A DNA stretch of 64,000 nucleotides from a virus (IMGVR_UViG_3300015050_000842:9894-73893); one strand, 5' to 3'; shown: positions 25,704 to 59,900, counted from the first letter of the stretch. Notes: a model not told the origin generated them from the sequence alone. Numbers and translations are program-made.

Positions 25704-25711
25704 TATATTTG
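25704..25711 (+). promoter_or_regulatory. -7 promoter box (TATATTTG) for the HNH gene, back-to-back with the portal promoter
   Basis: TAnnTTTG directly before the structured leader. Confidence 0.6.
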
Positions 25712-25810
25712 CTTTGTAATAAATAGATGCCGACACATCTAATGTAAAATATTTTACCCATTTAGGGGGAGGCTGTCGGGCTGAACCCAAAATGGGTTTT
25801 TTATTTTAAT
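25712..25810 (+). ncRNA. Structured 5' leader, pseudoknot/attenuator-like (copy 1)
   Basis: CCGACA (25730-35) pairs with TGTCGG (25774-79); ACCCATTTAGGG (25756-67) pairs with CCCAAAATGGGT (25786-97); then a T-tract and ATG. Confidence 0.55.
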
Positions 25811-26512
25811 ATGGTAAAATTATGTAAGGAATGTGGTGAATTAAAACCACACGAATTATTCTATAAAAATCGTACAATGAGTGACGGTCTAACCTATGAC
25901 TGTAAATCATGTAGATTAATAACAAAGAGAAAAAAGATAGCTGAAAACACAAAAGAAGTAATAGATATTGACGGAGAAATTTGGAAAGACGTAGTTGGTT
26001 TTGAAGGTTTTTGCATGGTAAGTAATATTGGCAGAGTAAAGTCATTAGATAGGTATTATGACTCAAAACGTGGTTGCACAAGAAAGGTTAGTTCCCACCT
26101 ATATGGAATTAGAGTAGAAAAAGGATATGATAGGGTTGGTATATGTGATGAATTTGGGCAGAAATCTTATGCAGTACACAGATTAGTCGCAGAAGCGTTT
26201 ATACCAAATCCTGATAATAAACCACACGTAAATCATATAAATTCAATTAGAAATGATAATAGGGTTGAAAATTTGGAGTGGGTTAATCATAGTGAAAACG
26301 TAACTCACGGTCTTGTATCGAAGTCATCTAAAACATCTATTTATTCGGGAGTTAGCTTCATCTCAAAGGAGAAAAAATGGAAAGCGTCTATAACTATCAA
26401 TAAAAAACAGGTTTACTTAGGAATATTTGGTTCTGAAACTGATGCAGCGTTAGCATATAAACAGTCGTTTATTAAGAATGGATTGGTAAATAGATATGTT
26501 GTATTGATTTAA
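25811..26512 (+). CDS. NUMOD4-HNH homing endonuclease with N-terminal Cys motif and AP2-like C-terminus
   Basis: EIWKDVVGFEG..MVSNIGRVKS (NUMOD4); VHRLVAEAF..VNHINSIRNDNRVENLEWVNHSEN (HNH); YSGVSF...WKASITINKKQVYLGIF (AP2). Antisense to the packaging module. Confidence 0.9.
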   Translation: MVKLCKECGELKPHELFYKNRTMSDGLTYDCKSCRLITKRKKIAENTKEVIDIDGEIWKDVVGFEGFCMVSNIGRVKSLDRYYDSKRGCTRKVSSHLYGIRVEKGYDRVGICDEFGQKSYAVHRLVAEAFIPNPDNKPHVNHINSIRNDNRVENLEWVNHSENVTHGLVSKSSKTSIYSGVSFISKEKKWKASITINKKQVYLGIFGSETDAALAYKQSFIKNGLVNRYVVLI

Positions 26513-26519
26513 CAGTTTT

Positions 26520-28706
26520 TCAATAGTAAGTTTTGGACTTTCTTACCTGCATGAAATTCATAATCTTTGGCTCGACAACCTTTTTTCTAAAGTCTGATTT
26601 CAAACCCATTAACGAATAACCCCATGCCATTGCTGCATCGTAGTCATTTCTATCATTGATATTAAAGCCTAACATATCCTTCAATAACCGCAAAAACTTA
26701 ATCTTGTGCATATTATTTAACGCATACTCCACCATTTCTGTTAGGTGCTGTTCCCTTGCTTCTTTATCTTGTGGGGCGCAACCGTACACTTCTGAATTGT
26801 TTGCACGTTTGGTAGGAATTAAGTACCCGTGTAGCTTTGGTGCGGTTTCAGGACTTGCAAGACGATTGTTTTGGTGCATGGCGTGGTCTATCCAATCGGT
26901 AGGGGCACGTTCACCAAGCATTCTAACTCCGTAGTATTCTAATCCCCAATATACCTGATTGAAAAACTCTTGCTTGGTTTCAGGTCTGCCTAAGAACATA
27001 GCACATGGATAGTCTGAATTTTCAGGGTCTAAACTGTCGTACCTCTTATGAATAATACAACAAGCATCCGAACCCTTGTCTACTGTTTGTCGTGAGTTGG
27101 CAAAAGGGTCAAGCCCTGCGCTTCCAAAAGCTGTATTGTCGGGACATTTAATACTTCCTTGATAAACAGACTTGTTGTGGTTCTCAACAAATTCAAGTAT
27201 GTACCACATTCCCGAATTGCTGTCCTCGAAGTAAACCTCTCCGTTATCTCTTTTCTTAAATCTGCCTCGTCTGCCATTCTCTGTTAGTCCTGTTCCCTCT
27301 AACGAAGTTTCAATACGTTCTATCTGGTTGGTTAAGTCCTCTAAATTAAAGTGGCATAGGTTGTTTACGCCTCTAAATACCTCTATCCACTCGAAAGGAA
27401 ACTGTCTTATTTCCTCCGATAATAGTTCGGGGTCATTTGCTAATATGTTACGTTGTTCTTGCAGATAGTCCTTTGCACCTATTCGTGGATTAGGACACGC
27501 TTTCTTGCCTGTTGTTGGGTCACGAACTTCTTCTAAGTATGCTATTTGTTCGGGAGTTGGATTCTCAATGACAGAGTTCCCATACTTGTCAATATAACCG
27601 TAATATCCTCTATACCCCTCTAAGAAAAATCGTTTTAGACGTGACGGGGTTTGACCAATACTGCTTAGTTTTCCTTGCTGATTAGAGGATAGCCAAATCT
27701 TTTTAAAGTTGTCACCTCCTGCATCACCCTTGTTTACGCTACTAAATAGTGATACGTGACCAATTACTGATGCACCGACCACTAAAGTCTTGCTAATCTT
27801 TGAAAAACATAGCTGAACATCTGCCTCCTGCCATTTTGCTCCCTCGTCAATGGTTATTTTTCTTGCCCTACGACCATCGTATGCGTTCTCTGCCGTTGGC
27901 AACCAATTCACACGATTGTTCTTGCCCTTATCGTTTGATACTGTTCTGTTATTGGCAGATATTCTTGCTTTTGGTTTAGCGATATGAAACTCTGTTTCGG
28001 CTACCTTTGCTAATTCAGGAACAAGAAATTCGGGTAACTTCTCCAATCCGTTCTTAACCATCAAGTACATTTCCTTAGCATCCGTACCCGTCTTAGATAC
28101 AATACCCTGTAAGGTATTTTCCTCTATTATTGCGATTAAAAGGCTTATAGATGCCGACATTGACGACAAACCAACCCTTCGACCTTTTATTCCACAGTCA
28201 CCTAACGTGAAGTCGTCATCCTCACATAGCTTGTAGAATATAAAGTATTCAAGTGAAGTGTCTTTGTAGATAGGGTATATGCCCTCTTGGAGCATAAAAT
28301 ATTGATGGAAAAAATAACAATACTTATTGAAATAGGTCGGAACTCCGTTTATGAATACCCAATCTCCATTATGTAGCTTGTAAATTTCTTGAATGAACCA
28401 CTCCATTTGACCACGTTGCGGTGCTTGATGCCAAAGAGTGCCTAATTTTGGGTCGGTATTCCAATCCCATTGTTCGTATGTAGTATCTCTGTACCAAACT
28501 TGGTCGTGTTTCGGTAAGTGGTGTCCTCTGATTTTATGGAACGGAGGTATTGGTGGTGTTTCGTATAAAACGTGCTGAACGTATGATTTGATAGTATTCC
28601 CTATCTTCCACTTTTTTTCTTGTGTGACAGGTGGCACGTATTCTATGCCTAATGCTAATGCCTCTGCTCTTGCTCTTTTCTCTCTTTTCTTAGGGTTACC
28701 TGCCAT
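26520..28706 (-). CDS. terL: Terminase large subunit
   Basis: KGRRVGLS (Walker A region), ITIDEGAKW (Walker B), FSSVN coupling motif, AGLDPF nuclease motif and YDAAMA C-terminus. Confidence 0.9.
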   Translation of the reverse strand: MAGNPKKREKRARAEALALGIEYVPPVTQEKKWKIGNTIKSYVQHVLYETPPIPPFHKIRGHHLPKHDQVWYRDTTYEQWDWNTDPKLGTLWHQAPQRGQMEWFIQEIYKLHNGDWVFINGVPTYFNKYCYFFHQYFMLQEGIYPIYKDTSLEYFIFYKLCEDDDFTLGDCGIKGRRVGLSSMSASISLLIAIIEENTLQGIVSKTGTDAKEMYLMVKNGLEKLPEFLVPELAKVAETEFHIAKPKARISANNRTVSNDKGKNNRVNWLPTAENAYDGRRARKITIDEGAKWQEADVQLCFSKISKTLVVGASVIGHVSLFSSVNKGDAGGDNFKKIWLSSNQQGKLSSIGQTPSRLKRFFLEGYRGYYGYIDKYGNSVIENPTPEQIAYLEEVRDPTTGKKACPNPRIGAKDYLQEQRNILANDPELLSEEIRQFPFEWIEVFRGVNNLCHFNLEDLTNQIERIETSLEGTGLTENGRRGRFKKRDNGEVYFEDSNSGMWYILEFVENHNKSVYQGSIKCPDNTAFGSAGLDPFANSRQTVDKGSDACCIIHKRYDSLDPENSDYPCAMFLGRPETKQEFFNQVYWGLEYYGVRMLGERAPTDWIDHAMHQNNRLASPETAPKLHGYLIPTKRANNSEVYGCAPQDKEAREQHLTEMVEYALNNMHKIKFLRLLKDMLGFNINDRNDYDAAMAWGYSLMGLKSDFRKKVVEPKIMNFMQVRKSKTYY

Positions 28707-29058
28707 TCAATGTTCCCGATTCCTTTAGCTTCTTTGATACTTGTTCAAATATATTGGTGTCTGAAAAACCCTCCGTATGTTCTTCTTTCTCTTTTGATTT
28801 TGGCTTTGTCTTTTCTACCCTTGCTGATATGGTCTTACTCTTATTATCCTCACCCATCAAAGTTACGATTTTAACAAACATTTTATCGTCTGCCAATACC
28901 GCACCTGTTTCCCTTATTGCACCCAACTCCTTTGCTATCTGTTGCTTCATTAGTTGTAACTCATTCGTCAGGTCGTTTGAACCGAATAAAGCACCCTCTA
29001 AATACGTTACGTAGTCAGACTGCTCTTGTGTTAAACTGTCAAGGTTTGGTCTTTTCAT
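28696..29058 (-). CDS. Hypothetical protein, candidate terminase small subunit
   Basis: 120-aa helical protein directly upstream of and overlapping terL; the assignment is positional only. Confidence 0.4.
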   Translation of the reverse strand: MKRPNLDSLTQEQSDYVTYLEGALFGSNDLTNELQLMKQQIAKELGAIRETGAVLADDKMFVKIVTLMGEDNKSKTISARVEKTKPKSKEKEEHTEGFSDTNIFEQVSKKLKESGTLNGR

Positions 29059-29666
29059 ACTTGCTCAAATTTAGCTGCGATTTCGTTATGAAACAACTTG
29101 ATGTAATCTCTACCATTGTAATTCAGGTAGTATTGGTGGTCGTCATCCGTACATACTATATCTCCAACACTTATCTCCTTGTACTTTCTATTCTTTGGAA
29201 CGTGCAGTATTTTGATTTTTAATGTTTCCTTTTTCTTGTCTGCCGAAGTGAGGTATATTCCGCTATCGGTCTTGACTGCATCTGTGTAGACTTGTTCCCC
29301 TAAGTACATATCGTCTGCCATTTCGATTTCTTCCCCTACAATCTTAAAAAATACGTGGTAAGGAAATACTAAGGAATATTCTTGTTCGTCTATCTGAATG
29401 ACTTCTTCGGCTTCCTTTGCCATGTAATGAAAGAATAACCTATCACCTTTTTTATATCCTAAGTTTGGTTGGTCAAAGCATACTGTTCCGATTTGTGGAT
29501 GCACCTCTTTCATGTTGAAGTTTGTCATCCACTTAGTTGTTTCACCGCCATAATCTCCGTGTTCGGTGTGTTCCCACATATCGGGGCGTATTAATTCAAC
29601 ACCACCTACTTCAATGATTTTGTTGTGCCTATCGTCAAACTGTACTATGAGTCTATTGCTATACAT
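29055..29666 (-). CDS. GroES-like co-chaperonin (two tandem GroES-like units)
   Basis: KTDSGIYLT...KIKILHV...ISVGDIV...YNGRDYIKLFHNEIAA matches GroES; the N-terminal half has a similar PQIGTV...KKGDRLFF pattern. Confidence 0.7.
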   Translation of the reverse strand: MYSNRLIVQFDDRHNKIIEVGGVELIRPDMWEHTEHGDYGGETTKWMTNFNMKEVHPQIGTVCFDQPNLGYKKGDRLFFHYMAKEAEEVIQIDEQEYSLVFPYHVFFKIVGEEIEMADDMYLGEQVYTDAVKTDSGIYLTSADKKKETLKIKILHVPKNRKYKEISVGDIVCTDDDHQYYLNYNGRDYIKLFHNEIAAKFEQV

Positions 29667-30645
29667 CGAGTAATCTATCTATTCTTAATTGGTTTATCTT
29701 GCTTAGTAAACGGTTATTCAAAATCCAATCCCACGCTTCATTATTCATTATTTCAAGTGAGTTAAACTCATCTTCATACGCTTTAAACGTATCTTTTACT
29801 CCTTCTGAAATATCAGCAACAAATCCATGCTTAAATTCGGGCAGAGTAGCGTTACCGAAGAACGCTGAACCTGCATACGTGGCTTCGAGTAATGAGATAT
29901 TACTTTTACAGACATTAAACACATTGGTAATCAATGGGAAGAACGCAATATTCGCATTTAGTTCGTGATACTCTTTATAAAACTGCATTAAGGTTACAGG
30001 GTCGGTGTATTCGTGATTCTTGCCTGTTCTTTCCTCGATGTGCTTAAAACGACTACCCTGAAACCTGAAAGTCCAATCCTGATTGTCGTTAATCATATAA
30101 ACTATGTCGTTGATATTTTGGTACATATCCGCTTCGTGAGATGCGCCACCCCTATAAGACATAATCTTTGTCTTGTGGTTAAACGGTTTCTTATTCTCTA
30201 TCGGAAATACTGTATCATTGTGGCAATTTGGGATTATGTGAATGTTTTTGTTGTACGGCTTGTATATGTGCTTAATCGCAGGTGTTGTTACCCAAACTTC
30301 ATCAGCTAAATGAATAGCCATTTTGATATTTGACTTCTGTTCTGCTAAGGTTATACTTGCGTTGTTGTGGAAAGGTACGTTCAATAGGTCATCGTCATAG
30401 TCTAAGATTACACGAATGTTCATATCCTTTGCTAACTTGATTAACTCGATATGAGGTTCGTGTGTCGGTCTTTGGAATATAAATGTATCAAAACCAATTA
30501 AACTGTTCCATCCGTATTCATTCTTTGAATTGTATAGGTTGGTTACGCTTATGTCAGGACTGTTTAGAAAGTTAAGTACACCGTTTGTCCTGTAAAATGC
30601 CGAAGCATTGGTTTCAAGCATACTTAAATAACACACTTTTTTCAT
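29659..30645 (-). CDS. Glycosyltransferase, GT-B/GT4-like
   Basis: RVILDYDDDL, ADEVWVTT, IHIIPN, NIAFFPL..N.FN.CKSNISLLEA motifs. Confidence 0.75.
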   Translation of the reverse strand: MKKVCYLSMLETNASAFYRTNGVLNFLNSPDISVTNLYNSKNEYGWNSLIGFDTFIFQRPTHEPHIELIKLAKDMNIRVILDYDDDLLNVPFHNNASITLAEQKSNIKMAIHLADEVWVTTPAIKHIYKPYNKNIHIIPNCHNDTVFPIENKKPFNHKTKIMSYRGGASHEADMYQNINDIVYMINDNQDWTFRFQGSRFKHIEERTGKNHEYTDPVTLMQFYKEYHELNANIAFFPLITNVFNVCKSNISLLEATYAGSAFFGNATLPEFKHGFVADISEGVKDTFKAYEDEFNSLEIMNNEAWDWILNNRLLSKINQLRIDRLLDV

Positions 30646-30782
30646 TTATGTAGTTTTATTGAACGATTTTTATATAGTTGTTTCAAGTCCTTATATGCGT
30701 TATTTGTGAAACGATTATCCTCAAAGTTATCGACTTGATAAATTGTTATCTTTCGTAGTTTACGAGCCTTCTTACCATTCAT
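30642..30782 (-). CDS. Small basic hypothetical protein (46 aa)
   Basis: ATG 30782 follows the DUF3307 stop; part of ORF-track entry 30642..30842. Confidence 0.45.
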   Translation of the reverse strand: MNGKKARKLRKITIYQVDNFEDNRFTNNAYKDLKQLYKNRSIKLHK

Positions 30783-30783
30783 G

Positions 30784-31167
30784 CTACTTAAATAAAATCC
30801 AATATGTTGTGAATAATTGTACGTAGTGTAATACTTGGTCAAACCCTACGCTAATAAAGAAGTTATGGCTATTCCCCGATGCCCAAAGTTTACTATTTAG
30901 TCTGCTTGTGTAGTAATCTGTTATCGTGTGAGCAACAAAAGTTATTAACAGGAATAAAGATATATTTTCAATAATCCCATGTACTGAAAACATAGAATAC
31001 CAACTATATAGAGCACCAACGATAGCAAAAATATAAGTGTAAGTAAATGTATGACCCAATAAATCATCCCAATTCTTACTTTTGCCTTTAGCTTGTTTAT
31101 CAGTTTGTAACACAAAGTCTGCAAACCAATGAATAATTAGTATTGCGAATATTTCTGTTAAATTCAT
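30784..31167 (-). CDS. DUF3307-family membrane protein
   Basis: HWFADFVLQT, H..TDYYTS and GFDQVLH motifs with hydrophobic helices. Confidence 0.8.
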   Translation of the reverse strand: MNLTEIFAILIIHWFADFVLQTDKQAKGKSKNWDDLLGHTFTYTYIFAIVGALYSWYSMFSVHGIIENISLFLLITFVAHTITDYYTSRLNSKLWASGNSHNFFISVGFDQVLHYVQLFTTYWILFK

Positions 31168-31168
31168 A

Positions 31169-35371: not shown

Positions 35372-36171
35372 GCCTCAAACGGGTTATAGTAAATATCTCG
35401 TACTCCTTTTTTGTAGTCCTCTGCTATCTCTGAAAACTCGGCTATTGTTCTTCCTGCTTCTCTGATTTTCTCTTTAACGTGTTCTCCCTCTCCGTTATCT
35501 AAGTGAACAATAGGAATTGTTGGTAGGAAAGCATTTTCAAATCCTGCAAGTTCGGAACGTAGTGACATCAATGAATCATCCCAAGCGTAAGTGGAAATTT
35601 GCCACATGTAGCCGACTTTATCTAATAGTTTAGGGCTAAACATAGTGCAAGTGCCTATAATATCTTTGGAGATTTCTAAAACAACCCAACTATCACCTCT
35701 TTCGTGAGGTAAAAACTTTAATTGTGTTCTGTATGCAGGATTTTCATGTTCAGGGTGTTGAATTAACTCTGTTCGCTTTAATCCTAATATTCCTAAGTTC
35801 GTGTATCTCTCAAAACATTCTTCCATTTCCTCTACCCAACCTACCCTACCTATCGTTACGTCTGAATCAATTTTAATTACGTATTGATTAGGTTTTCTTG
35901 TACGTATGCCTAAGTTTACTGCCTCTGCCGTACCTAAGTTCTTACCGTTATACGATATAGTTAGGTGGTTTGAAGGGAACATTGATTCAAAATGATATGT
36001 AAACTCTTTATAGAAATCAATCATTTCTTGACAAGAGCCGTTATCGCTAATGAAAAGTTCGCTTGGCAAAAAATCTACGGTGTCAAGTAAACCAAACAAA
36101 GTCTTTTTTGCGTACTCTAACCGATTATTTGTTTCGGTTGCGTATGACGCCATAATCACTAAAGCACACAT
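35368..36171 (-). CDS. Glycosyltransferase, GT2 family
   Basis: LFISDNGS, NLGTAEAVNLG and VIKIDSD (DxD) motifs. Confidence 0.8.
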   Translation of the reverse strand: MCALVIMASYATETNNRLEYAKKTLFGLLDTVDFLPSELFISDNGSCQEMIDFYKEFTYHFESMFPSNHLTISYNGKNLGTAEAVNLGIRTRKPNQYVIKIDSDVTIGRVGWVEEMEECFERYTNLGILGLKRTELIQHPEHENPAYRTQLKFLPHERGDSWVVLEISKDIIGTCTMFSPKLLDKVGYMWQISTYAWDDSLMSLRSELAGFENAFLPTIPIVHLDNGEGEHVKEKIREAGRTIAEFSEIAEDYKKGVRDIYYNPFEA

Positions 36172-36290
36172 AGATTACAAATAAAATACCCCAATACCAA
36201 GCGATGCGGAAACATACAGCAACTCGGAAGTTGTGCCTGATATTGGGGATGGATTAAATGTGTCAAGGGTTTTGCTGTTATATGTTTTTC
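36172..36290 (-). ncRNA. Structured 5' leader, pseudoknot/attenuator-like (copy 2), heading the glycosylation operon
   Basis: AAACATATAACAGCAA pairs with TTGCTGTATGTTT; CCCCAATATCAGG pairs with CTTGGTATTGGGG; interleaved order, then a T-rich tract and ATG 36171. Confidence 0.55.
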
Positions 36291-36354
36291 CGCTAACCAA
36301 AGTTGAGAAAAGTTTTTTATATATGCAAGTAAAAAAAGCACTTTCCTTTTAATT

Positions 36355-37438: not shown

Positions 37439-38023
37439 TTAATACCTCCATTTAAAACCTGCGCAAAAACTTGTTACTCCTCTTGCACAAGCAGATATTG
37501 CGCCAAAACTTCTATTTACACTTCTTGCTGCTTCAACAACAGAGCCAAATTCTTGAACAAAAACATCATCCATTGTGTATTTTTTTACTGATTTAGATGT
37601 AGGGTTTTCGCCACCGTATTTTCTTTTGTAAACAGATGGCTTTCTACCAAGAACTCTGTATGCGTGTAAATTATTTTCTTGTGATGTACACCATTCAAGG
37701 TTTTCGACTCTATTGTCTGTCTTAATTCCGTTCTTGTGATTAACAAATGGTTTATTTTCAGGGTTTGGAATAAACGCTTCTGCAACTAACCTATGAATAA
37801 CAGTAATAACAATTCTATCTAAATCATGCAAAGATATTTTCTGATAAGTATTTGTAACTCCTTTTACCAAATGACCACTTCTATATTTTTGTCGAGATTT
37901 CCTATTATTCATACCCAACCATTTCCCGTGTCTATAAACCCTTCCTAAAGAACTAACCATATAAAAACCACTCCACCCTAATACATCTCTCCATTCCTCT
38001 CCTTCTAAAATTTCAATATCCAT
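37439..38023 (-). CDS. NUMOD4-HNH homing endonuclease with C-terminal NUMOD1-like domain
   Basis: Likely start ATG 38023 (MDIEILEGEEW). EEWRDVLGWSGFYMVSSLGRV; IHRLVAEAF..VNHKNGIKTDNRVENLEWCTSQENN; FVQEFGSVVEAARSV. Confidence 0.9.
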   Translation of the reverse strand: MDIEILEGEEWRDVLGWSGFYMVSSLGRVYRHGKWLGMNNRKSRQKYRSGHLVKGVTNTYQKISLHDLDRIVITVIHRLVAEAFIPNPENKPFVNHKNGIKTDNRVENLEWCTSQENNLHAYRVLGRKPSVYKRKYGGENPTSKSVKKYTMDDVFVQEFGSVVEAARSVNRSFGAISACARGVTSFCAGFKWRY

Positions 38024-38125
38024 AATAAAAAACCCCACAAATACAAAGGCTGTCCAGTCTGCCGAGGTAGGCATAAGGCAATGTAGATGCAGGGATATTT
38101 TTAAATTTCTTCATAACTGAACAGC
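38024..38125 (-). ncRNA. Structured 5' leader, pseudoknot/attenuator-like (copy 3)
   Basis: GCTGTTCAGTT pairs with GACTGGACAGC; CCCTGCATCTACA pairs with TGTATTTGTGGGG; TTAAAAATAT linker; T-tract then ATG. Confidence 0.55.
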
Positions 38126-38129
38126 AAAA

Positions 38130-38137
38130 CAAATTTA
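38130..38137 (-). promoter_or_regulatory. -7 promoter box (TAAATTTG)
   Basis: TAnnTTTG 4 nt before the leader stem. Confidence 0.6.
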
Positions 38138-41161: not shown

Positions 41162-41162
41162 A

Positions 41163-41583: not shown

Positions 41584-41620
41584 TATACTATTTCACAAAT
41601 AATGAAATTTATTTTCAAAT

Positions 41621-41706
41621 AAAAAAGCCCCATGTCTTTCGACACAGGGCTAAACGAAATGAAAAACGAAAGACTAACACAAAGAGCCTGATGAAAAGCG
41701 ATTGCT
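41621..41706 (-). ncRNA. Candidate small RNA (~85 nt) between a promoter and a terminator
   Basis: TACCTTTG at 41717-41710, then an AGAGC/GCTCT hairpin, a U-rich single-stranded stretch and the terminator AGCCCTGTGTC-GAAA-GACATGGGGCT-TTTTT; no ORF on this strand. Confidence 0.55.
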
Positions 41707-41709
41707 CTA

Positions 41710-41717
41710 CAAAGGTA
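41710..41717 (-). promoter_or_regulatory. -7 promoter box (TACCTTTG) for the candidate sRNA
   Basis: TAnnTTTG just downstream of the exoribonuclease gene stop. Confidence 0.55.
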
Positions 41718-45730: not shown

Positions 45731-45767
45731 AGTTTATAAAAATCGTATACCAATAGTATCTACACAA

Positions 45768-45799
45768 CAAACTTACAGTATTAATTTAAAACTACCAAA
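45768..45799 (-). promoter_or_regulatory. Bacteroidota promoter TTTG-N20-TAAGTTTG for the leftward arm
   Basis: -33 TTTG (45799-96) and -7 TAAGTTTG (45775-68) with canonical spacing. Confidence 0.7.
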
Positions 45800-45826
45800 A
45801 GTATTTTTAAAAAGATACTAACACTT

Positions 45827-45871
45827 CCACAGTATACCTACACGATACTGACCAGTATACCCACAGTATAC
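45827..45871 (+). repeat. Three CAGTATAC direct repeats (operator/iteron-like)
   Basis: CAGTATAC at 45830, 45853 and 45864; two extend to CCACAGTATAC; a further GTATAC at 45746. Confidence 0.6.
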
Positions 45872-46744
45872 TAACTTTCACTTAACTTCTTGATAATCAA
45901 TGAAAAGTCTAAAATAATCGCTAAGACACTTGAGTGAACTAATCCTTACTGTTACATACTTTACAAGGTTACTTAATTACAATCAAAAAATTTCGCCAAA
46001 AAATTAAGGCATCAAACTATTCAAGTAATCATTACTACAATAATACAATTCGCTATATACCAATCGGGGTGGCTTGGTAAAGTGTTTGTAATTAATAACA
46101 GATACTACGTGTGTTTATAACCGTGATGTTGTTGTTTGATAGTCTATGTTCATAGGGGGTGGACTATCCCCCCTGTCACCACTCTCTCCAATCACAAAAT
46201 AAAGTCGTTTCCTCACATGGGGGTACTATCAAACGTAAAAGTTATCCAGCTATCTCAATCGTTTATCAGTCATCCATTATAAGTAAATCAAATCAGTTAC
46301 CCTGAATGATTGTTATGCTTGTTAAGTGGTAACGGTAACAGGTTAGTGAATGGTATTGTCTTGATTAGGTTATGCAATGGAATTGGATTTGATATGTTGT
46401 GTTTTATGTGTGTATGTAAAGGAGAGAGGGATAAACAACCAACACAACACAAGTCCGCGTATGATATAGCCAAAAAACTATAATTAATCAATACCAAAGT
46501 AATAACTATTAAAAACCCTGTTTAATGGTATTTAAACATAGAAAACGATTATTTTGTTAGTGTTGATATATCATACTATACAATGTATAAAGTGTCTTAA
46601 AACGTCTTAAAATAGGCTTAAATTAAATGTACTGTTTTTGGTTATGTATTATTATTTAGACTTATTATAAATTGCAAATATATTATGTATTAATTAAAAT
46701 ACTACTTACTATTGTATAAGCAATTAAATAAACACTTAAATATT

Positions 46745-49609: not shown

Positions 49610-49713
49610 CCCCTAACCACAAAATAAAGCCATTACAGACACTTTAATATGTTTGTAATGGTAATTACTAACTTGCCCTTTATAATTGATTACAGGGCTT
49701 AATTTTAAACGAA

Positions 49714-49959
49714 ATGAAACAACATAACCAGATAGGAAAGTACCCTAAAAAAGAGTTAGTGCTTGACGGCAAAAAGGGCAGAAACTTTGTAACCCCTAAA
49801 AATAAAACATATCAGTTTGACTACGAAAAAATAGGTAATTCATATAATTTTATTATAATCTATATGGGTAAAAGAATGAGAATGAAAGAATCAGATTTTA
49901 ACAAGCATAATATTGATGATATTCTAATCTCAATAGAAAATTCACTTGCCATAAACTAA
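49714..49959 (+). CDS. Early hypothetical protein
   Basis: ORF track. Confidence 0.55.
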   Translation: MKQHNQIGKYPKKELVLDGKKGRNFVTPKNKTYQFDYEKIGNSYNFIIIYMGKRMRMKESDFNKHNIDDILISIENSLAIN

Positions 49960-49964
49960 ACACA

Positions 49965-50341: not shown

Positions 50342-50353
50342 ACACTAAATAAG

Positions 50354-51806: not shown

Positions 51807-51807
51807 C

Positions 51808-52219: not shown

Positions 52220-52228
52220 ATAAATTAT

Positions 52229-52236
52229 TATATTTG
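52229..52236 (+). promoter_or_regulatory. -7 promoter box (TATATTTG)
   Basis: 4 nt before the structured leader of the HNH gene. Confidence 0.65.
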
Positions 52237-52240
52237 TAAC

Positions 52241-52366
52241 GCTTTGTACTTAACTCTTAAACACATGATTATTCATTCTTAAAAATATACCCTGACGGCT
52301 GGCGGAACATTCCTCTCTATGAGAGTTAAGTTACAAAGCACGTTAGCCTGATGGGTTTTTAAAATC
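52241..52366 (+). ncRNA. Structured 5' leader, pseudoknot/attenuator-like (copy 4)
   Basis: CTTTGTACTTAACTCT (52242-57) pairs with AGAGTTAAGTTACAAAG (52322-38); ACCCTGACGGCT (52289-300) is complementary to CGTTAGCCTGATGGGT (52341-56); T-tract then ATG. Confidence 0.6.
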
Positions 52367-52960
52367 ATGGGACATTTCAAAAATATAGACAATCAGTTTT
52401 CTATCGATGGAGAAATTTGGAGAAAAATAAGACAACATAAACTATATGAAATTTCAAACTACGGTAGATTGCGTAGGTGGCGTAATTCAAAGCAAGAATA
52501 CTATATCTGCATAAATCCACTTGTAAGGGTTACAGGATATTACAGAAAGACCATGCAGGTAAATGGTAAAAGTACAGGACAATTTATTCACCGATTAGTC
52601 GCAGAAGCATTTATACATAATCCTGAAAATAAGCCAATGGTAAACCATAAAGATGGCAATAAATGGAATAACCACGTTTCTAATTTAGAATGGGTTACCG
52701 CCAAAGAAAATATTGACCACGCATGGAGGACGGGTTTGCAACACACTAATTCACCCAATCTAAAAGGGTCACGACCAGCAAGAGAAATAAATCAATTAAC
52801 ATTAGAAGGAAATTTTATAAAAACATGGAAAAATGCAAGACAAATACACAGGGAATTAGGATTTTCAAATACAAGCATCTCTAAGTGTTGCAATAAAGAA
52901 AAACATCATAAAACAGTCAGAGGATTTAAATGGGAATATAAAGATGAAAATAAACTTTAA
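52367..52960 (+). CDS. NUMOD4-HNH homing endonuclease with NUMOD1-like C-terminus
   Basis: EIWRKI...YEISNYGRLR; IHRLVAEAF..MVNHKDGNKWNNHVSNLEWVTAKEN; FIKTWKNARQIHRELGFS. Confidence 0.9.
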   Translation: MGHFKNIDNQFSIDGEIWRKIRQHKLYEISNYGRLRRWRNSKQEYYICINPLVRVTGYYRKTMQVNGKSTGQFIHRLVAEAFIHNPENKPMVNHKDGNKWNNHVSNLEWVTAKENIDHAWRTGLQHTNSPNLKGSRPAREINQLTLEGNFIKTWKNARQIHRELGFSNTSISKCCNKEKHHKTVRGFKWEYKDENKL

Positions 52961-53225: not shown

Positions 53226-53226
53226 G

Positions 53227-53385
53227 ATGGGACAATTAGTATCTGCAATTATAATATTTGCACTCATAACCTTATTAGGTTTAGGAATAGCATACGTTAC
53301 GGGATGGAATGGGAAAACCGTATTGTTTGTTCTTTATGGACTAATAGTATTTTTAGGATGTATTCAAGCAGCAGACGAATTATGA
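53227..53385 (+). CDS. Small two-helix membrane protein (52 aa)
   Basis: Manual translation MGQLVSAIIIFALITLLGLGIAYVTGWNGKTVLFVLYGLIVFLGCIQAADEL. Confidence 0.55.
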   Translation: MGQLVSAIIIFALITLLGLGIAYVTGWNGKTVLFVLYGLIVFLGCIQAADEL

Positions 53386-53597
53386 ATCACTACAACCCAT
53401 ATCAAACCCTTAGTTACACCGCTAAGTACGGTAGTCCTAAACCAAAAGTTAAACATACTCACTTTGTAGTGACTTATAATGGGATTGCCTTAACAAAGCC
53501 GATGTCTTATGCTTTATCGCAAATGGAGTTAAAGCAATTTAAGATGCAGGGTATTTTATATCCTGATAAAACAAAGTTTAAAATAGTAGGAGTATAA
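53382..53597 (+). CDS. Hypothetical protein
   Basis: Likely ATG 53382 (ATGA overlap) within ORF-track entry 53304..53597. Confidence 0.5.
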   Translation: MNHYNPYQTLSYTAKYGSPKPKVKHTHFVVTYNGIALTKPMSYALSQMELKQFKMQGILYPDKTKFKIVGV

Positions 53598-53612
53598 ACA
53601 AAACGAAACGAA

Positions 53613-54548: not shown

Positions 54549-55264
54549 TGGAAACAAAAACAAGTATAGCAAAAGCCATATTAGCGGTAATGAAAGACGT
54601 TAAGGGCATTGACAAGAGTATGACAGTTGGTTCAGGGAACAACTCATACAAAGGAGTACCTGACCAAGAGGTAAAAAAGATAATCGGTGAAGCGATGGAA
54701 AAGCACGGGTTATGCTTATTACCTATCGGAGTAGATGCAAAAACAAAGATAGACCGATGGGAAGAAGAGTCTACTTACAACGGAGTAACATCAAAGAAGA
54801 TGAAACAGTCCGTATTTACAGAGTCAAAAACACGATACCTTTTACTACATACAAGCGGAGAGAGTATTGAACTTGAAGGTTACGGTCAGGGAGTTGATTC
54901 ACAAGACAAAAGCGCAGGTAAAAGCACCACGTATGCACTAAAATACACACTTTTATACACTTTCTTAGTTCCAACAGGGAAAATTGACGATGCTGATACT
55001 ACTCATTCAGATGATATTCAAACACCACAAACGAAAGCACCTGTTCAAGTCAAAGAACCAAGCGTAGACGATAAAGTAGCCAATATGCAAGGCAGAACAA
55101 ACCCTGAATTACCCTCTGGAATTGCACAGTCTATCTTAGATGCAAAAACACAAGCAGAACTAAAGACTATATGGGAATCAAATACAGACCTACATAAAGT
55201 TAAGAAGTTTGCTGATGCAGTAACACAAAGGAAAGCAGATTTACTTAAAAACGGAATGAAATGA
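54548..55264 (+). CDS. erf: ERF-family single-strand annealing protein
   Basis: GQGVDSQDKSAGKSTTYALKYTLLYTFLVPTG..DDAD motif. Confidence 0.85.
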   Translation: METKTSIAKAILAVMKDVKGIDKSMTVGSGNNSYKGVPDQEVKKIIGEAMEKHGLCLLPIGVDAKTKIDRWEEESTYNGVTSKKMKQSVFTESKTRYLLLHTSGESIELEGYGQGVDSQDKSAGKSTTYALKYTLLYTFLVPTGKIDDADTTHSDDIQTPQTKAPVQVKEPSVDDKVANMQGRTNPELPSGIAQSILDAKTQAELKTIWESNTDLHKVKKFADAVTQRKADLLKNGMK

Positions 55265-55452
55265 AAAATTGGAGATTAGAAACAATGGCAAAGGATTGTA
55301 TTGATTCTTTGGTTAATGAGATTGATTCATTAGAAAAAGAAGTTGATAGATTGACAGACGAAGTTGATGAATTGCAAGATAGATTAACCGAAAGAGATAA
55401 TCAAATCTCTGATTTAGAAGAAATAATTCAAAACCTTAATAATCCTGAATAA
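55261..55452 (+). CDS. Small coiled-coil protein
   Basis: Heptad acidic helix. Confidence 0.6.
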   Translation: MKNWRLETMAKDCIDSLVNEIDSLEKEVDRLTDEVDELQDRLTERDNQISDLEEIIQNLNNPE

Positions 55453-55967
55453 TGGAAACTACACCACTATTAAAAAAGAAGTCAATATATAACCTACAAT
55501 CAGAGTATATTGATTTAATGAATCAGATTGAAGACAATGAAGGAGAATTAACACCTGAACTATCTGCACAACTTGACATAACAAAAGAACAGTTAGAGGA
55601 TAAAGCAACAAGCTATTGCTATCTAATGAAAGAACTTAGTTTTGATACTGCTAAAATAGACGCTGAAATAAGCCGTTTACAGGCACTAAAATCTTCTAAG
55701 GTTAAATTACAAGAGCAATTAGAAATTCGTGTGTCAGAAGCCATGAAACGGTTCGGTATAGACAATATAGACCGTAACAACCTTAAACTTTCATTCCGAG
55801 CATCTAAACAGTTGATTATTGCAGAAGGAACTAAAATACCTAAGCAATTCCAAATCGTTAAAATGAATACGGTGGTGGATAAGGCTAAATTGAAAGCACA
55901 TATTGAATCAGGTAAGAAAGTAAAAGGAGTTAGCATATTAGAGAAGAAAAATCTTCAAATAAAGTAA
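55452..55967 (+). CDS. Siphovirus Gp157-family protein
   Basis: SIYNLQSEY...IDAEISRL...KLSFRAS...VDKAKLK...GKKVKG pattern. Confidence 0.85.
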   Translation: METTPLLKKKSIYNLQSEYIDLMNQIEDNEGELTPELSAQLDITKEQLEDKATSYCYLMKELSFDTAKIDAEISRLQALKSSKVKLQEQLEIRVSEAMKRFGIDNIDRNNLKLSFRASKQLIIAEGTKIPKQFQIVKMNTVVDKAKLKAHIESGKKVKGVSILEKKNLQIK

Positions 55968-56176
55968 TGGATGACATTCAAAAAAGACTATCAGGCAGGA
56001 TAAACTTACTATCTGATTTTAACATCACAGTAGATTATGAAAATGATATGATTTACGTTCATTGTGACAGAGAGTTAGATGTGAGTATAACATGGTTGAA
56101 ATACATGAATAAGCCAAAGTTCACAACTTACCTTAACGAAGTTCAGGAAGCATACTTAATAAAAAACGAATTATGA
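55967..56176 (+). CDS. Hypothetical protein
   Basis: ORF track. Confidence 0.5.
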   Translation: MDDIQKRLSGRINLLSDFNITVDYENDMIYVHCDRELDVSITWLKYMNKPKFTTYLNEVQEAYLIKNEL

Positions 56177-56457
56177 AATGGTATATAGGACAACCGATAG
56201 TGGCGATAAGGAATCATTCACAAGGTATATTTAAGAAAGGTCAAGAGTTTTCTATATCAGGAATTAGATTATGCCCATGTGGGTGCAATATGATTCAGAT
56301 TGATATTTCAATTAAAAGCGGAACAGAGTGGGAATGTGACAAATCAAAATATAGAGAGCATACCGCTATATGGTGGCTTTCTGAAAGAAATTTCGCACCA
56401 CTTGACCAAGACATATCAGAACTAACAGAAATATTAACTAAAAAAGAAACAGCATGA
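56173..56457 (+). CDS. Hypothetical protein
   Basis: ORF track. Confidence 0.6.
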   Translation: MKWYIGQPIVAIRNHSQGIFKKGQEFSISGIRLCPCGCNMIQIDISIKSGTEWECDKSKYREHTAIWWLSERNFAPLDQDISELTEILTKKETA

Positions 56458-56584
56458 TAAACGAGCAACAAACAACAGGATGGAAAGTAACGATATGTGT
56501 TATCTGCTTTCTATGGGGAGTAATTACAGGTATAATAATCAGTAAGGCTATTGATAGCAATTACTATTCTAAGGAGGTAGTGAA

Positions 56585-56950
56585 ATGAACAGAGATATAA
56601 AGTTTAGAGGTATAAGTGAACGTACTAATGGTTTTGTTTACGGTAGTTTATTTTTTGCCGATACAGGGTTGACTATAATTGAAAATGGAGGTTCTGACAT
56701 AACAGACTTCCATTTCGTTAAGCCCGAATCAGTAGGTCAATACACAGGAATAAAATTTAATGATGTCGAATTATACGAAGGTGATATAATCGAATGGTAT
56801 CAAAGACCAGAGGGTTATCCACAAGACCCCCAAAAAGTTAGAAAAACAAAAGTAATTGAACTTAGTAATTTAATAGCTGGTTGCTTTTTGTATAACTTTT
56901 ACGATTATAAGATTATCGGAAACATTCACCAAGACAAAGACTTATTATGA
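56585..56950 (+). CDS. yopX: YopX-family protein
   Basis: REIKFRG-like start, VGQYTG, LYEGDII and IIGNIHQDKDLL motifs. Confidence 0.85.
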   Translation: MNRDIKFRGISERTNGFVYGSLFFADTGLTIIENGGSDITDFHFVKPESVGQYTGIKFNDVELYEGDIIEWYQRPEGYPQDPQKVRKTKVIELSNLIAGCFLYNFYDYKIIGNIHQDKDLL

Positions 56951-57204
56951 GCAAAAACCTACACATGGAAACGCAAGAACAACTACTTGCCAAAGAACCA
57001 ACCGCCATTTCACTTGAATTGGTAGAGAGAGAATACAAATTCTTAGGTTGGGATAATAGTTGGAGTATTAAACCTCCTGAATTAATGCCTTGTAAAGAAG
57101 CTAAACACGAAAGACGTTATTTCTATCAAGGTAACAGAGGACACAACAATACAGTAGTCTGTGATAAATGCAGATACTATTATAAATACGACAGTTCAGA
57201 TTAG
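56947..57204 (+). CDS. Hypothetical protein (Cys/His motif)
   Basis: ORF track. Confidence 0.55.
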   Translation: MSKNLHMETQEQLLAKEPTAISLELVEREYKFLGWDNSWSIKPPELMPCKEAKHERRYFYQGNRGHNNTVVCDKCRYYYKYDSSD

Positions 57205-57209
57205 AAAAT

Positions 57210-57452
57210 ATGGCTCATATAAAAACACAAATAGGAACATCAGATTCCGCAGATTTTGAACAAAACACATGGACATTTTCAATGAACACAAGATTTAGTG
57301 TTTGTGCAGGAGATTTTGCAATAGTCCCATTACAATCTTACAGGGATTCCCTAATTAAGCTAAACGAAATTATTGATAGGTTTCCTAATAATGTTGAAAT
57401 TCAACACGTAAAAGATTCAGTAAAATATGTTTTATTAATGTTAGAAGAATAA
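57210..57452 (+). CDS. Hypothetical protein
   Basis: ORF track. Confidence 0.55.
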   Translation: MAHIKTQIGTSDSADFEQNTWTFSMNTRFSVCAGDFAIVPLQSYRDSLIKLNEIIDRFPNNVEIQHVKDSVKYVLLMLEE

Positions 57453-57616
57453 ATTATGAGAGTAGCAGTAAGCAGAACGGTTTACCCAAACGGTAAAGTA
57501 AAAGAACATGAACACGGAATGGATGTCTTAGAGATAAGAAAACCATTAAAGGATAACCAATTCAATCGGGTTGGAGAGAGAGTAACAAAATTCGTAAACA
57601 AGTTATATAATATAAA

Positions 57617-57895
57617 ATGATAACAAGAGAACAAATCGAAGTAGCATTTGGAGATATACGAAATGCCTTTAAAACAAAAAATATTGACCACGATGTAACT
57701 GCAATAACCTTACTAAGAGAAAGAATACCTTATGAAGTTTGCAAAAGCATTATCGGTGGTGCAGAACACGATGTATTATTTCTATGCGATTTGAAAGACG
57801 CAATCCCCCATCTTTCAGAGGATGATTTAGGAATATTAGCAGACTGCAATGTTTGGGTAGATGATGACTGCGATTGCTTTGCACTTTTTGTATAA
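57617..57895 (+). CDS. Hypothetical protein
   Basis: ORF track. Confidence 0.6.
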   Translation: MITREQIEVAFGDIRNAFKTKNIDHDVTAITLLRERIPYEVCKSIIGGAEHDVLFLCDLKDAIPHLSEDDLGILADCNVWVDDDCDCFALFV

Positions 57896-57931
57896 ACATT
57901 TAAAAAAAACAAATTAAATAAATAAATAATC

Positions 57932-58273
57932 ATGGAAGTAAAAGGTAAAATTGTAAAAATCGGGCAGGCCGAACAAGTAAAAGAGAATTTTTCTAAACGT
58001 GACTTAATCGTTGACGTATCAGATAACCCAACCTACCCAAGTCCTGTTAAATTTGAAGCATTAAAGGATAAGACCTCTTTGCTTGACAATCTTAAAGTAG
58101 GGGATAATATAGAAATATCGTTTAATATGAATGGTCGTGAATGGGTTGATAAAACAGGTAAGGTATCTTACTTTACCACCCTATCAATTTGGAAAGTGAA
58201 TATATTTAGTGCAGGTCAGATGCAGGAAGCACAAGTGTTTGATAATGAACAAGATGAACAATTACCGTTCTGA
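57932..58273 (+). CDS. DUF3127-family ssDNA-binding protein (OB fold)
   Basis: MEVKGKIVKI...FSKRDLIV...GREW...YFTTLSIWK, with an acidic tail ending in LPF. Confidence 0.85.
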   Translation: MEVKGKIVKIGQAEQVKENFSKRDLIVDVSDNPTYPSPVKFEALKDKTSLLDNLKVGDNIEISFNMNGREWVDKTGKVSYFTTLSIWKVNIFSAGQMQEAQVFDNEQDEQLPF

Positions 58274-58274
58274 T

Positions 58275-58649
58275 ATGACACCATACATAGCAGTAGGACT
58301 ACCGTATATATCTATCAAGGGGTATATACGGTACAAAGCATCACTACCCAAGATGGACATGGCAGAGGTTGATATGATAGTTAATCGGATTATAATGTTA
58401 ATATCATTGGAGTTGAGTGTGCCAAAGTCAGATATTTTATCCAATTCAAGACGTATGCCCGAAAAGGATGCAAGACACTTAGCTATTCGTATTATACGAA
58501 ACAGAACCAAGTTATCAACGGTTAAGATAGGGCAAATATTTAATCGTGACCACGCTACAATCGTTCACTCTTTACAAACAACAGATGGATGGATTAGGCA
58601 CAACCATAAATTCAATCAGCTATACACAAGTATTGACAAATTAATATGA
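58275..58649 (+). CDS. Stand-alone DnaA domain IV-like HTH protein
   Basis: DILSNSRR....ARHLAI...KIGQIFNRDHATIVHS; likely ATG 58275. Confidence 0.8.
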   Translation: MTPYIAVGLPYISIKGYIRYKASLPKMDMAEVDMIVNRIIMLISLELSVPKSDILSNSRRMPEKDARHLAIRIIRNRTKLSTVKIGQIFNRDHATIVHSLQTTDGWIRHNHKFNQLYTSIDKLI

Positions 58650-58855
58650 AAGAACCAATAACATTAAAGGAAGCACTAAACATCTACGGTGTTAAAATGG
58701 CGACAATAGAGAGGCTTGCAGGGATTCCTAAAGGATTACTGTCACAATATGTCAACGGCACAAAGAAATGCTCTCCTGAACGCTTATTTCTCATTGAGGA
58801 TGCGTTTAAACAATTAGGTAAGGATATGGAGCATACTAAACTTGTAGCAGAATGA
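58646..58855 (+). CDS. XRE/Cro-like HTH protein
   Basis: MATIERLAGIPKGLLSQYVNGTK motif. Confidence 0.7.
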   Translation: MKEPITLKEALNIYGVKMATIERLAGIPKGLLSQYVNGTKKCSPERLFLIEDAFKQLGKDMEHTKLVAE

Positions 58856-59490
58856 ACGAGCCATCATTATTTGACAAAATATTCAGAGAAGCAAACACTA
58901 AGGTAAGCGAAGCTATACTTAATGGAGAGCAGTCTGTTTATATTCCAATAACAGTCAAGCAAACAAGTCCTGCATATTTAGCAATAGACCCCGGCAAGTC
59001 AGGCGGTTTAACGGTTATGCACAACGGAGAATTAGTATTTAAGGGCATTATGCCAATATCAGGAGATAACTTAGATATTAAAGCCTTATACGACCTAATT
59101 ACAAGCCTTACAAGCGATTATCTTTTAACGGTGGTAATAGAAGACGTACACAGTATTTTCGGCTCATCAGCAGGTTCTAATTTCACATTTGGTTTTGTAT
59201 GCGGTGCTATTGAAGCAGTAGTTGTTTCTTGTAAACTAAAACTTATTAAGGTTCAGCCTAAAACATGGCAGAAAGAAGTTTGGTCTAATTCAGATAAATG
59301 CTACAAGCCTAAGAAACCTAACCAAAAGAACGCATCCATTGATACTAAACTAACATCACTTAACTGTGCTAAAAGACTGTTCCCTAATTTTGACTTTAGA
59401 AAGTCAGATAGTGCAAGGGTTACTAAAGAGCATGACGGTATTGTGGATAGTGCTTTAATGTGTGAATACGCAAGAATTAAAAATTTGTAA
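58852..59490 (+). CDS. ruvC: RuvC-like Holliday junction resolvase
   Basis: LAIDPGKSGG, VVIEDV, VQPKTWQK and HDGIVDSALM motifs. Confidence 0.85.
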   Translation: MNEPSLFDKIFREANTKVSEAILNGEQSVYIPITVKQTSPAYLAIDPGKSGGLTVMHNGELVFKGIMPISGDNLDIKALYDLITSLTSDYLLTVVIEDVHSIFGSSAGSNFTFGFVCGAIEAVVVSCKLKLIKVQPKTWQKEVWSNSDKCYKPKKPNQKNASIDTKLTSLNCAKRLFPNFDFRKSDSARVTKEHDGIVDSALMCEYARIKNL

Positions 59491-59507
59491 ATATGAAAAA
59501 CATTTTT

Positions 59508-59515
59508 TATTTTTG
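59508..59515 (+). promoter_or_regulatory. -7 promoter box (TATTTTTG)
   Basis: TAnnTTTG ahead of pseudoknot copy 5. Confidence 0.45.
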
Positions 59516-59526
59516 TTGTGTTATCG

Positions 59527-59900
59527 AAGCCGTGACAGGAAAGATAAGCACTTAACTTCTTAAAAATATACAGGCAATTTAACTGTATCTGCGAACATTC
59601 ACCCTGTCACGGTTTATTCAACGATACGGTTTTATTGTCCTGTTGTTTAAACTTGTACAGGAGAGGGAACATCCAAAGCCCTAATCAAAAACAGGTATTC
59701 GAACATTCTAACGTGTCAAATAAAGTGTGAGCAATGTCTGAAAGGTGACAACTCACGACCTTGAAGTGAAAGAGATACCGACACGGACTTGCCAATAGAT
59801 GTTGGGGAAAATGAACGAGTAGTAAGTACAGTTAAATGGATTAAAGATTAAACGTACTACAATCCCCCCTTCAAGTGATATAAACCTTTTGTGTCTAAAT
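59527..59900 (+). ncRNA. Pseudoknot leader copy 5 plus ~250-nt structured non-coding extension (candidate ncRNA)
   Basis: AGCCGTGACAGG (59528-39) pairs with CCTGTCACGGTT (59603-14); ACAGGCAAT..AACTGTATC pairs with GATACGGTT..ATTGTCCTGT; further stems CTTGAAG/CTTCAAG and GTAGTA/TACTAC; no ORF. Confidence 0.5.

Follow-up and report, generated by a model that had tools for sequence, protein, structure and literature searches.

The window analysed here is a stretch of 64,000 nucleotides (nt), bases 9894-73893 of the 73,893-bp IMG/VR virus IMGVR_UViG_3300015050_000842, a Bacteroidota-type phage with direct terminal repeats for which megablast detected no close relatives among the GenBank phages. 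A first-pass annotation had described five leader-like elements in this window, in which complementary segments are interleaved in the order a...b...a'...b'. Direct reading and an explicit helix search agreed in placing all five, designated c1 to c5, on the strands and at the positions proposed (Table 1), and the interleaved order was found in each copy. Three of them (c1, c3, and c4) precede genes encoding NUMOD4 + HNH_3 proteins, namely HNH1, HNH3, and HNH4, whose products are 36-38% identical in pairwise comparisons. Leader c2 heads the glycosylation operon, which extends from 36171 down to 26520 and runs from a glycosyltransferase gene to the terminase large subunit, and c5 stands before a stretch without an open reading frame (ORF). 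These gene contexts agree with those reported earlier, except that the start of HNH3 had to be corrected to 38023.

All five leaders show the same order of elements, consisting of a promoter-like box, segment a, an A/U-rich linker, the C-rich segment b, a', b', and a U-rich tail. The box reads TAnnTTTG in four copies and is present as the variant CAACTTTG in c2, as had been noted before. It fits the -7 consensus of the Bacteroidota sigma-ABfr (PMC7366714). Segment a starts 4-12 nt past the box, the spacer between a' and b' measures 1-7 nt, and an ATG follows 9-17 nt past the stem in all copies except c5. Directly 3' of b' lie UUUUUUAUUUU (c1), UAUUUUAUUU (c2), UUUUUUAUU (c3), and UUUUU (c4). 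The T-rich tract ascribed to every copy was confirmed in c1 to c4, but that of c5 is weak (CUGUUGUUUAAAC). With its G+C-rich stem and 5-9 U, the b/b' hairpin resembles an intrinsic terminator, as proposed; termination is thus predicted for c1 to c4 and weakly for c5, and a simple terminator scan also picked c1. The miniature candidate listed last in Table 1 is not significant when taken alone.

Table 1: Positions of the leaders, their predicted elements, and the adjacent genes in the window.
Feature	Position	Strand	Remarks
Leader c1 (kissing-loop subtype)	25704..25813	+	box 25704-25711; HNH1 ATG 25811
c1 5' hairpin	25724-25741	+	UAGAUG/CAUCUA; loop CCGACA = a, 25730-25735
c1 predicted terminator hairpin	b 25756-25767 / b' 25786-25797	+	U tract 25798-25808
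c1 a'	25770-25779	+	UGUCGG 25774-25779 near hairpin tip
HNH1	25811..26512	+	NUMOD4 + HNH_3 (+AP2), homing-endonuclease-like
Leader c2	36169..36305	-	CAACTTTG box 36298-36305; ATG 36171; U-rich tail
c2 helices	a 36271-36293; b 36235-36248; a' 36206-36222; b' 36189-36202	-	
HNH3	37439..38023	-	NUMOD4 + HNH_3; true ATG 38023
Leader c3 (type J)	38013..38137	-	box 38130-38137; U tract 38024-38032; ATG 38023
c3 helices	a 38115-38125; b 38082-38094; a' 38049-38059; b' 38033-38045	-	
c3 junction motifs	ACAUUGCC 38077-38084; GCCUUUGU 38043-38050	-	inner hairpin between
c3 upstream ORF	38013-38114	-	33 codons; overlaps HNH3 start
Leader c4	52229..52369	+	box 52229-52236; U tract 52357-52361; HNH4 ATG 52367
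c4 helices	a 52241-52259 / a' 52320-52339; b 52289-52304 / b' 52341-52356	+	a/a' 19 bp; b/b' with internal loop
c4 conserved 15-mer	52276-52290	+	
HNH4	52367..52960	+	NUMOD4 + HNH_3
Leader c5	59508..59650	+	box 59508-59515; weak U-rich tail
c5 helices	a 59527-59539; b 59573-59589; a' 59603-59615; b' 59623-59639	+	
c5 15-mer	59557-59571	+	same as that of c4
Possible sixth, miniature copy	49648..49716	+	box TATGTTTG; U-rich tail; ATG 49714
Miniature copy, helices	a GUAAUUA 49661-49667; b GCCCU 49675-49679; a' UGAUUAC 49687-49693; b' AGGGC 49694-49698	+	

The leaders were scored by the stacking energy of the best interleaved helix pair, using 200 dinucleotide shuffles as null. The resulting z values were -2.9 for c1, -6.3 for c2, -5.3 for c3, and -7.7 for both c4 and c5. 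When the whole 73.9-kb genome was scanned on both strands in sliding windows of 140 nt (7374 windows), c5, c2, and c4 occupied ranks 1 to 3, c3 ranked approximately 9th, and c1 lay within the top 2%. TAnnTTTG itself is not enriched genome-wide (103 found versus 100 expected) and is therefore meaningful here by position only; behind the other boxes found in front of genes of this phage, the leaders comprise just 3-37 nt. The sense strand outscored the reverse complement in 34 of 43 instances (Wilcoxon p 1.5e-6), which were drawn from this window as well as other phages, and G-U pairs made up 110 of 1040 helix pairs (10.6%). This strand comparison agrees with the earlier proposal of cis leader RNAs that share an architecture and are read on the sense strand. 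Inverted repeats acting at the DNA level and an antisense RNA were rejected because of the asymmetry. The five a/a' pairs are mostly orthogonal, with -10 to -23 kcal/mol between proper partners versus mostly -1 to -7 kcal/mol between improper ones; an exception is a of c5 with a' of c1 (-12.7 kcal/mol).

The linker preceding b had been described as conserved. This was correct in so far as TTCTTAAAAATATAC is identical in c4 and c5, but the linker is mostly an A tract upstream of the predicted terminator, and in relatives of c3 it additionally contains the first codons of an upstream ORF. All three TTAAAAATAT sites of the window fall inside leaders (c3, c4, and c5). The unpaired linkers of c4 and c5 have GCG(G)AACAUUC and an identical 15-mer in common, and their helices are unrelated.

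Covariation was analysed in the family of c3. A motif (ACATTGCC...GCCTTTGT) derived from c3 and three HNH leaders was searched in IMG/VR and retrieved 18 further members among many chance matches. Both helices were also present in 15 of 15 motif hits carrying the signature that is independent of pairing (box, AUG, and A-rich linker). In a plain MAFFT alignment of 22 sequences, 93.8% of the a/a' cells are paired compared to 68% after shuffling, with double-sided changes in 8 of 11 pairs. For a/a' and b/b' taken together, 91.9% of the cells are paired compared to 72% in shuffled alignments and 33-43% in slid registers, and double changes occur in 14 of 22 pairs. Both helices covary in this family, and the earlier impression that pairing is kept while the letters differ completely is borne out across the alignment. 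Invariant are GC opening a, ACA/UGU atop b/b', and the junction bases UUGCC and CUU; a U-G wobble within a/a' is mostly retained, and UUGCC and a' are separated by a third hairpin, which is variable. This pattern indicates that a/a', b/b', and the third hairpin would form one pseudoknotted three-way junction. The first-pass annotation had proposed a competition between b/b' and a/a'. That proposal has to be abandoned, as the segments do not overlap and the helices, together with the invariant junction bases, therefore coexist in the c3 family rather than compete.

We refer to this arrangement as type J, which is defined by GC-a (10-11 nt), AUGAAA, an A tract, b ending in ACA, UUGCC, an inner hairpin, a' ending in GC, CUU, UGU-b', and a U tract; c3 contains every one of these elements. 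The family model scored c3, which is part of its seed, with 105.6 bits and the other four copies with 18-20 bits or not at all. A search for multiple type-J copies per phage yielded one copy in each of five contigs. Downstream of the members retrieved by the motif only, eight HNH_3-type genes, one classical HNH gene, and one gene each for a NUMOD1 protein and a GIY-YIG protein were found, the remaining cargo being DUF1376, DUF6291, a BT4734-like primase-type protein, and three small ORFs. Two related contigs (L311 and L370) carry a 95% identical leader at different positions, followed by an HNH gene in one and by approximately 2 kb of other genes in the other. The leader thus moves as a module.

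Members of the c3 family also contain an upstream ORF, beginning at the conserved AUGAAA located 1-3 nt 3' of a. This frame is open to ACAUUGCC in 18 of 18 members and through a' in 16 of 18, compared to the +2 frame with stops in 12 of 18 (to ACAUUGCC) and 14 of 18 (through a'). Insertions in the linker keep the frame, UUUAAA being read as UUU AAA. Only MK-x-(F/I/L)-K is conserved in the peptide and all three frames relative to the structure occur, suggesting that the act of translation is selected, if anything, and not the peptide. In eight members the upstream ORF stops within approximately 10 nt of the ATG of the gene. Stop and start overlap as AUGA in L211, the stop in c3 lies 8 nt past the ATG, and in two members both frames are fused. 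No comparable upstream ORF was detected in c1, c2, c4, and c5. Of the features of a trp-type leader-peptide attenuator, neither an overlapping alternative helix nor a codon bias beyond A-rich codons was observed.

The remaining copies belong to other subtypes. Leader c1 aligns end to end with members of a kissing-loop subtype (type K; L061, L032, L021, and L222), defined by a 5' hairpin with a loop of 6-8 nt and a terminator hairpin with an apical loop complementary to it. Consistent with this definition, the loop CCGACA of c1 stands opposite UGUCGG at the tip of b/b', and an A-rich linker separates the 5' hairpin from the predicted terminator. An AGUA/GAAAG internal loop is found in the type K relatives and not in c1, and the b/b' register produced by MAFFT differs row by row in this subtype. 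Leaders c2, c4, and c5 are characterized by long a/a' helices of 13-19 bp. No homologues of these three were obtained, as searches with the exact 15-mer and with TTAAAAATAT...GAACATTC gave chance matches without the architecture. The three are apparently phage-specific paralogues, their linkers being conserved and their helices unrelated. A different variant precedes the HNH genes of crAss-like and related phages (L015-L017, L026-L030, L041-L043, L048, L078, L081, L083, L085, L140, L221, L224, and L233). Here, the TAnnTTTG box is followed by a three-way terminator with a loop (e.g., GCUAAC, GUCAAC) to which two repeats located further downstream (GUUAGC, GUUGAC) are complementary. The second repeat directly adjoins the ATG, and loop and repeats covary between phages. 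In the HNH leaders of L247 and L219, a' can pair with either of two adjacent 5' segments, overlapping by 4-5 nt on a', which may represent a two-state switch.

HNH relatives with 30-45% identity to the HNH proteins of the window were taken from IMG/VR and metagenomes, and their upstream regions were compared with 942 ORF upstream regions from approximately 1 Mb of unrelated phage DNA. The design was called when two interleaved helices, a U tract, and an ATG within 40 nt were present with a score of <= -30. It was found upstream of HNH genes in 23 of 132 non-identical regions compared to 7 of 942 controls (Fisher p 2e-16), and one of these seven controls itself belongs to an HNH gene. The association with mobile endonucleases proposed by the first-pass annotation is thus statistically strong but not exclusive. 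The element shows a strong enrichment at homing endonucleases from several families that are unrelated to each other, and it is not specific to them, since it also leads the glycosylation/terminase operon, the recombination module, and unrelated genes elsewhere. One locus (L206) combines a TTGACA/TATAAT promoter and an AGGAGG ribosome site with the same design, which is therefore not restricted to Bacteroidota phages. At approximately position 1795 of locus L148 (- strand of the locus), a strong a..b..a'..b' leader (score -47) precedes a Bro-N/antirepressor-like gene of a Shine-Dalgarno phage, so that the design exists outside endonuclease genes and outside phages of the Bacteroidota type. In HNH loci of bacterial genomes it was detected in 3 of 77 cases and in 0 of 17 Bacteroidota loci. 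Due to this rarity we consider it mainly a feature of phage contigs.

The five sites were compared with the families of Rfam 15, among them c4 antisense RNA, riboswitches, and ribozymes. No family reached the gathering score or even E<=5 at these sites, and 20 leader-bearing loci of other phages gave no hit at E<=1. No described family matches, and literature text searches retrieved no description of such leaders. A group I intron, a hammerhead, and a hepatitis delta virus-like ribozyme were rejected, as there are no Rfam hits, b pairs with b', and a conserved core is lacking. A riboswitch would be expected to have a conserved ligand-binding core. Conservation is limited here to the helices, the A tract, and 5+3 junction bases, and the five copies of this genome have no common core.

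The genome is organised in two divergent gene blocks. The leftward block starts at approximately 45.7 kb and proceeds from replication genes via the glycosylation operon ending in the terminase large subunit to the portal and structural genes; the rightward block, from approximately 46.7 kb, contains small early genes, recombination genes, and more endonucleases. Between them lies a control region of approximately 1 kb without ORFs (45731-46711) with repeated GAUAGU-CCCCC motifs, the fold of which is not significant (z -0.5). HNH1 and its leader c1 form a self-contained cassette in antisense orientation between the terminase large subunit and portal genes, and the c1 terminator, having an A tract as well as a U tract, could also halt leftward transcripts. 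HNH4 is followed by a recombination module encoding Erf-like and Gam-like proteins, SSB, and a Holliday junction resolvase. Behind c5, approximately 250-260 nt are devoid of ORFs (59646-59910), and small ORFs of 40-58 codons follow from 59911. This stretch has a higher G+C content than its surroundings and is not unusual in structure (fold z -0.3), and neither an Rfam nor a phage match was obtained for it. An HNH pseudogene was rejected because tblastn revealed no HNH remnant, and the stretch may be a decayed cassette. For the resolvase encoded upstream of c5, only homologues with an identity of 46% or less were obtained, and no leader was found behind them; c5 is thus not traceable by synteny. 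Two further endonuclease-like genes are located at 61370-61819 and 61859-62626. One matches the PHROG HNH endonuclease family. The other resembles a GIY-YIG homing endonuclease, shares its C-terminal domain with HNH3, and has a TATATTTG box just 3 nt 5' of its ATG, and therefore no structured leader. At 41600-41717 (-), a TACCTTTG box is followed after approximately 65 nt by a very strong terminator (41626-41651; 11 bp, UUUUUUAUUU; fold z -4.2), directly after which the next promoter is found, and a weak sub-threshold Rfam hit to RsaF (E 0.04) was obtained. This may be a short RNA unit or merely the terminator of the upstream gene.

Taken together, we favour the interpretation that the leaders are promoter-proximal attenuators dosing or gating the downstream genes, and assign it a probability of roughly 0.6. 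It is based on stems with runs of 5-9 U, often with an upstream A tract, that is, canonical terminators, located between a consensus promoter and a gene, and on the precedent of T4 mobE. From this arrangement we infer transcription driven by the box, termination at b/b', and an effect of the 5' pairing. Each leader would start a transcript from a host-type sigma-ABfr (TAnnTTTG) promoter and end in an intrinsic terminator (b/b' + U tract) located 7-17 nt ahead of the first gene. The loop or junction of the terminator hairpin would pair with the initial 10-20 nt of the RNA, which would be present either as a free strand or exposed in the loop of a small 5' hairpin, resulting in a compact pseudoknot or kissing complex. 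Most transcripts would halt as an RNA of approximately 90-130 nt, and the gene would be reached by read-through only, resulting in a low dose of homing endonuclease and in marked module boundaries. The 5' pairing might steady a terminator with a large loop, or protect the short RNA or the 5' end of the mRNA. For the c3 family, a ribosome loading before a' exists might melt the fold, hamper closure of the terminator, and bring ribosomes to the start of the gene. Formation of a/a' would close the 11-14 nt preceding the upstream AUG and thereby lock the leader, so that only ribosomes loaded on the nascent chain would get through.

Several points weigh against this interpretation. The promoters, the termination, and the translation of the upstream ORF are all deduced from the DNA, and this ORF is limited to the c3 family and therefore not a general mechanism. 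A strong promoter right before a terminator would be odd for merely low expression, and the layout would equally suit a regulated gate or a functional short RNA. Moreover, c2 and c4 lead long, essential modules (terminase and recombination, respectively) that would need substantial read-through, and c5 combines a poor U tract with the lack of a gene immediately 3' of it. The 5' pairing shares no bases with the arms of the terminator, and the anatomy therefore does not readily show how it would act on termination.

Since c2 and c4 lead essential modules, antitermination has to be regarded as a serious rival, though we consider it unlikely. Termination would be the default, and read-through would be permitted at the appropriate time by a factor of the phage or the host, or by an action of the RNA fold on the polymerase, following the scheme of the lambda PR' - 6S RNA - tR' unit with Q or of the HK022 put RNA. 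Such a regulated gate would fit the strong consensus promoters immediately before the terminators and the need of the terminase operon and the recombination module for ample read-through at some stage. The 15-mer and GCG(G)AACAUUC, unpaired and shared by c4 and c5 between unrelated helices, would suit a sequence-specific factor. However, no Q, N, or NusG-like antiterminator was identified among the ORFs scanned, many of which are unannotated, and phages of great diversity show the same architecture with linkers that are unrelated, which speaks against a single dedicated protein. In addition, put-like RNAs target terminators located further downstream and are not known to contain a terminator themselves.

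Alternatively, the terminated leader might itself be the product, an abundant and stable small RNA that pairs in trans, via its unique a or a' address, with nascent transcripts of its own unit, resulting in a feedback of the P4 CI / P1 C4 kind, or that acts elsewhere through its conserved single-stranded linker. Whether the segments pair in cis or in trans cannot be told from covariation, the a/a' pairs are largely orthogonal, a paired 5' end and a 3' terminator hairpin should resist exonucleases, and c5 is not directly followed by a gene. On the other hand, the leaders are unrelated in sequence to the c4 antisense RNA and to all other Rfam families, tethered partners in cis normally win, the invariant junction bases of the c3 family indicate an intramolecular fold, and the fairly good pairing between a of c5 and a' of c1 means that the addresses are not strictly unique. 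We therefore regard this possibility as rather improbable. Doubtful, too, is the idea of address-coded RNA gates, in which the accumulated leader would act in trans via its private a/a' on the nascent transcripts of its own unit. If it were true, the level of read-through would be set by each cassette for itself, from a count of its transcripts or genome copies. It would be a modular RNA-only autoregulator travelling with homing endonucleases and other accessory genes, the ribosome serving as a second input in the c3 family. Very improbable is purely post-transcriptional control, with the fold steadying the mRNA 5' end or hiding the start and the U tract serving as an unstructured landing site for ribosomes: the ATG that follows a stable helix at a distance of 9-17 nt in a phylum without Shine-Dalgarno pairing, the upstream-ORF stops clustering by the gene start, which suggests translational coupling, and the weak U tracts in c5 and L040 would fit, but other genes of this phage have A-rich and not U-rich sequence before the ATG, and most members carry 5-9 U right after a G+C-rich stem, often with a complementary upstream A tract.

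A leader with a terminator is of a known kind. Not described so far are the conserved pairing of the 5' end with the terminator loop or junction, a conserved family of junctions containing an upstream ORF, and an association of such leaders with endonuclease cassettes. Free-standing homing endonucleases need expression, but little of it, and the means by which this is achieved are hardly known outside T4. The portable module of candidate promoter, leader, and predicted terminator, with its conserved tertiary pairing, precedes HNH, GIY-YIG, and NUMOD1 endonucleases, leads whole phage modules, and is widespread in uncultured Bacteroidota-type phages without having an Rfam entry. With it, the consequences that pairing of the terminator loop with the 5' end might have for termination, RNA stability, or translation become testable in a phylum without Shine-Dalgarno-led initiation. 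Annotators gain a marker of cassette boundaries, and the leaders might provide compact, mutually orthogonal parts for expression control in Bacteroides engineering.

The only experimental precedent that we found is mobE, a free-standing HNH gene of T4, in which an intrinsic terminator at the 5' end stops 30-50% of the transcripts (Wilson and Edgell 2009, PMC2790892). This terminator is kept wherever the gene is present and has been interpreted as an adaptation limiting a harmful nuclease (PMC2790892). Common to mobE and the leaders is a Rho-independent terminator, in the latter a predicted one, at the very start of a free-standing HNH gene. Unlike the leaders, mobE lacks a dedicated promoter, and its terminator, located 27 nt inside the ORF, is a simple hairpin that does not pair with the transcript 5' end. 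The mobE terminator belongs to a different phage group and has no sequence relation to the leaders.

In the lambdoid PR' - 6S RNA - tR' unit, Q acts via a DNA site and a promoter-proximal pause. This unit resembles the leaders in having a strong promoter, a short terminated leader RNA, and a long operon that needs read-through; unlike them, 6S RNA is not known to have a conserved pairing of its 5' end with the terminator loop, and a Q-like gene was not found among the ORFs scanned in this phage. In the L5-L13 contact of the cobalamin riboswitch, an upstream hairpin loop pairs with the loop of the expression-platform hairpin, and a loop-loop tertiary contact on a downstream hairpin is likewise proposed here. 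In contrast to the large conserved ligand core of that riboswitch, the leaders show no sign of a ligand pocket and match none of the Rfam cobalamin models.

P4 CI and P1/P7 C4 are processed leader RNAs that act in trans further downstream, where they cause termination or block a ribosome site. They share with the leaders that short RNAs at the start of an operon have loops pairing with boxes of the same transcript and addresses that covary, and the orthogonality of the a/a' pairs is compatible with a P4 CI or P1 C4-type reading. They differ in that both partners of the leaders lie within approximately 100 nt upstream of the gene and that Rfam gives no homology. As in the trp and pyrBI leader-peptide attenuators, a short ORF runs through the 5' arm of the predicted terminator in the c3 family. 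Unlike trp and pyrBI, this family has no antiterminator helix overlapping the terminator and no regulatory codons, and its frame varies relative to the structure. Its likeness to the delayed-folding control of the MS2 maturation gene lies in a long-range pairing of the extreme 5' end that would close the initiation region once the RNA is complete.

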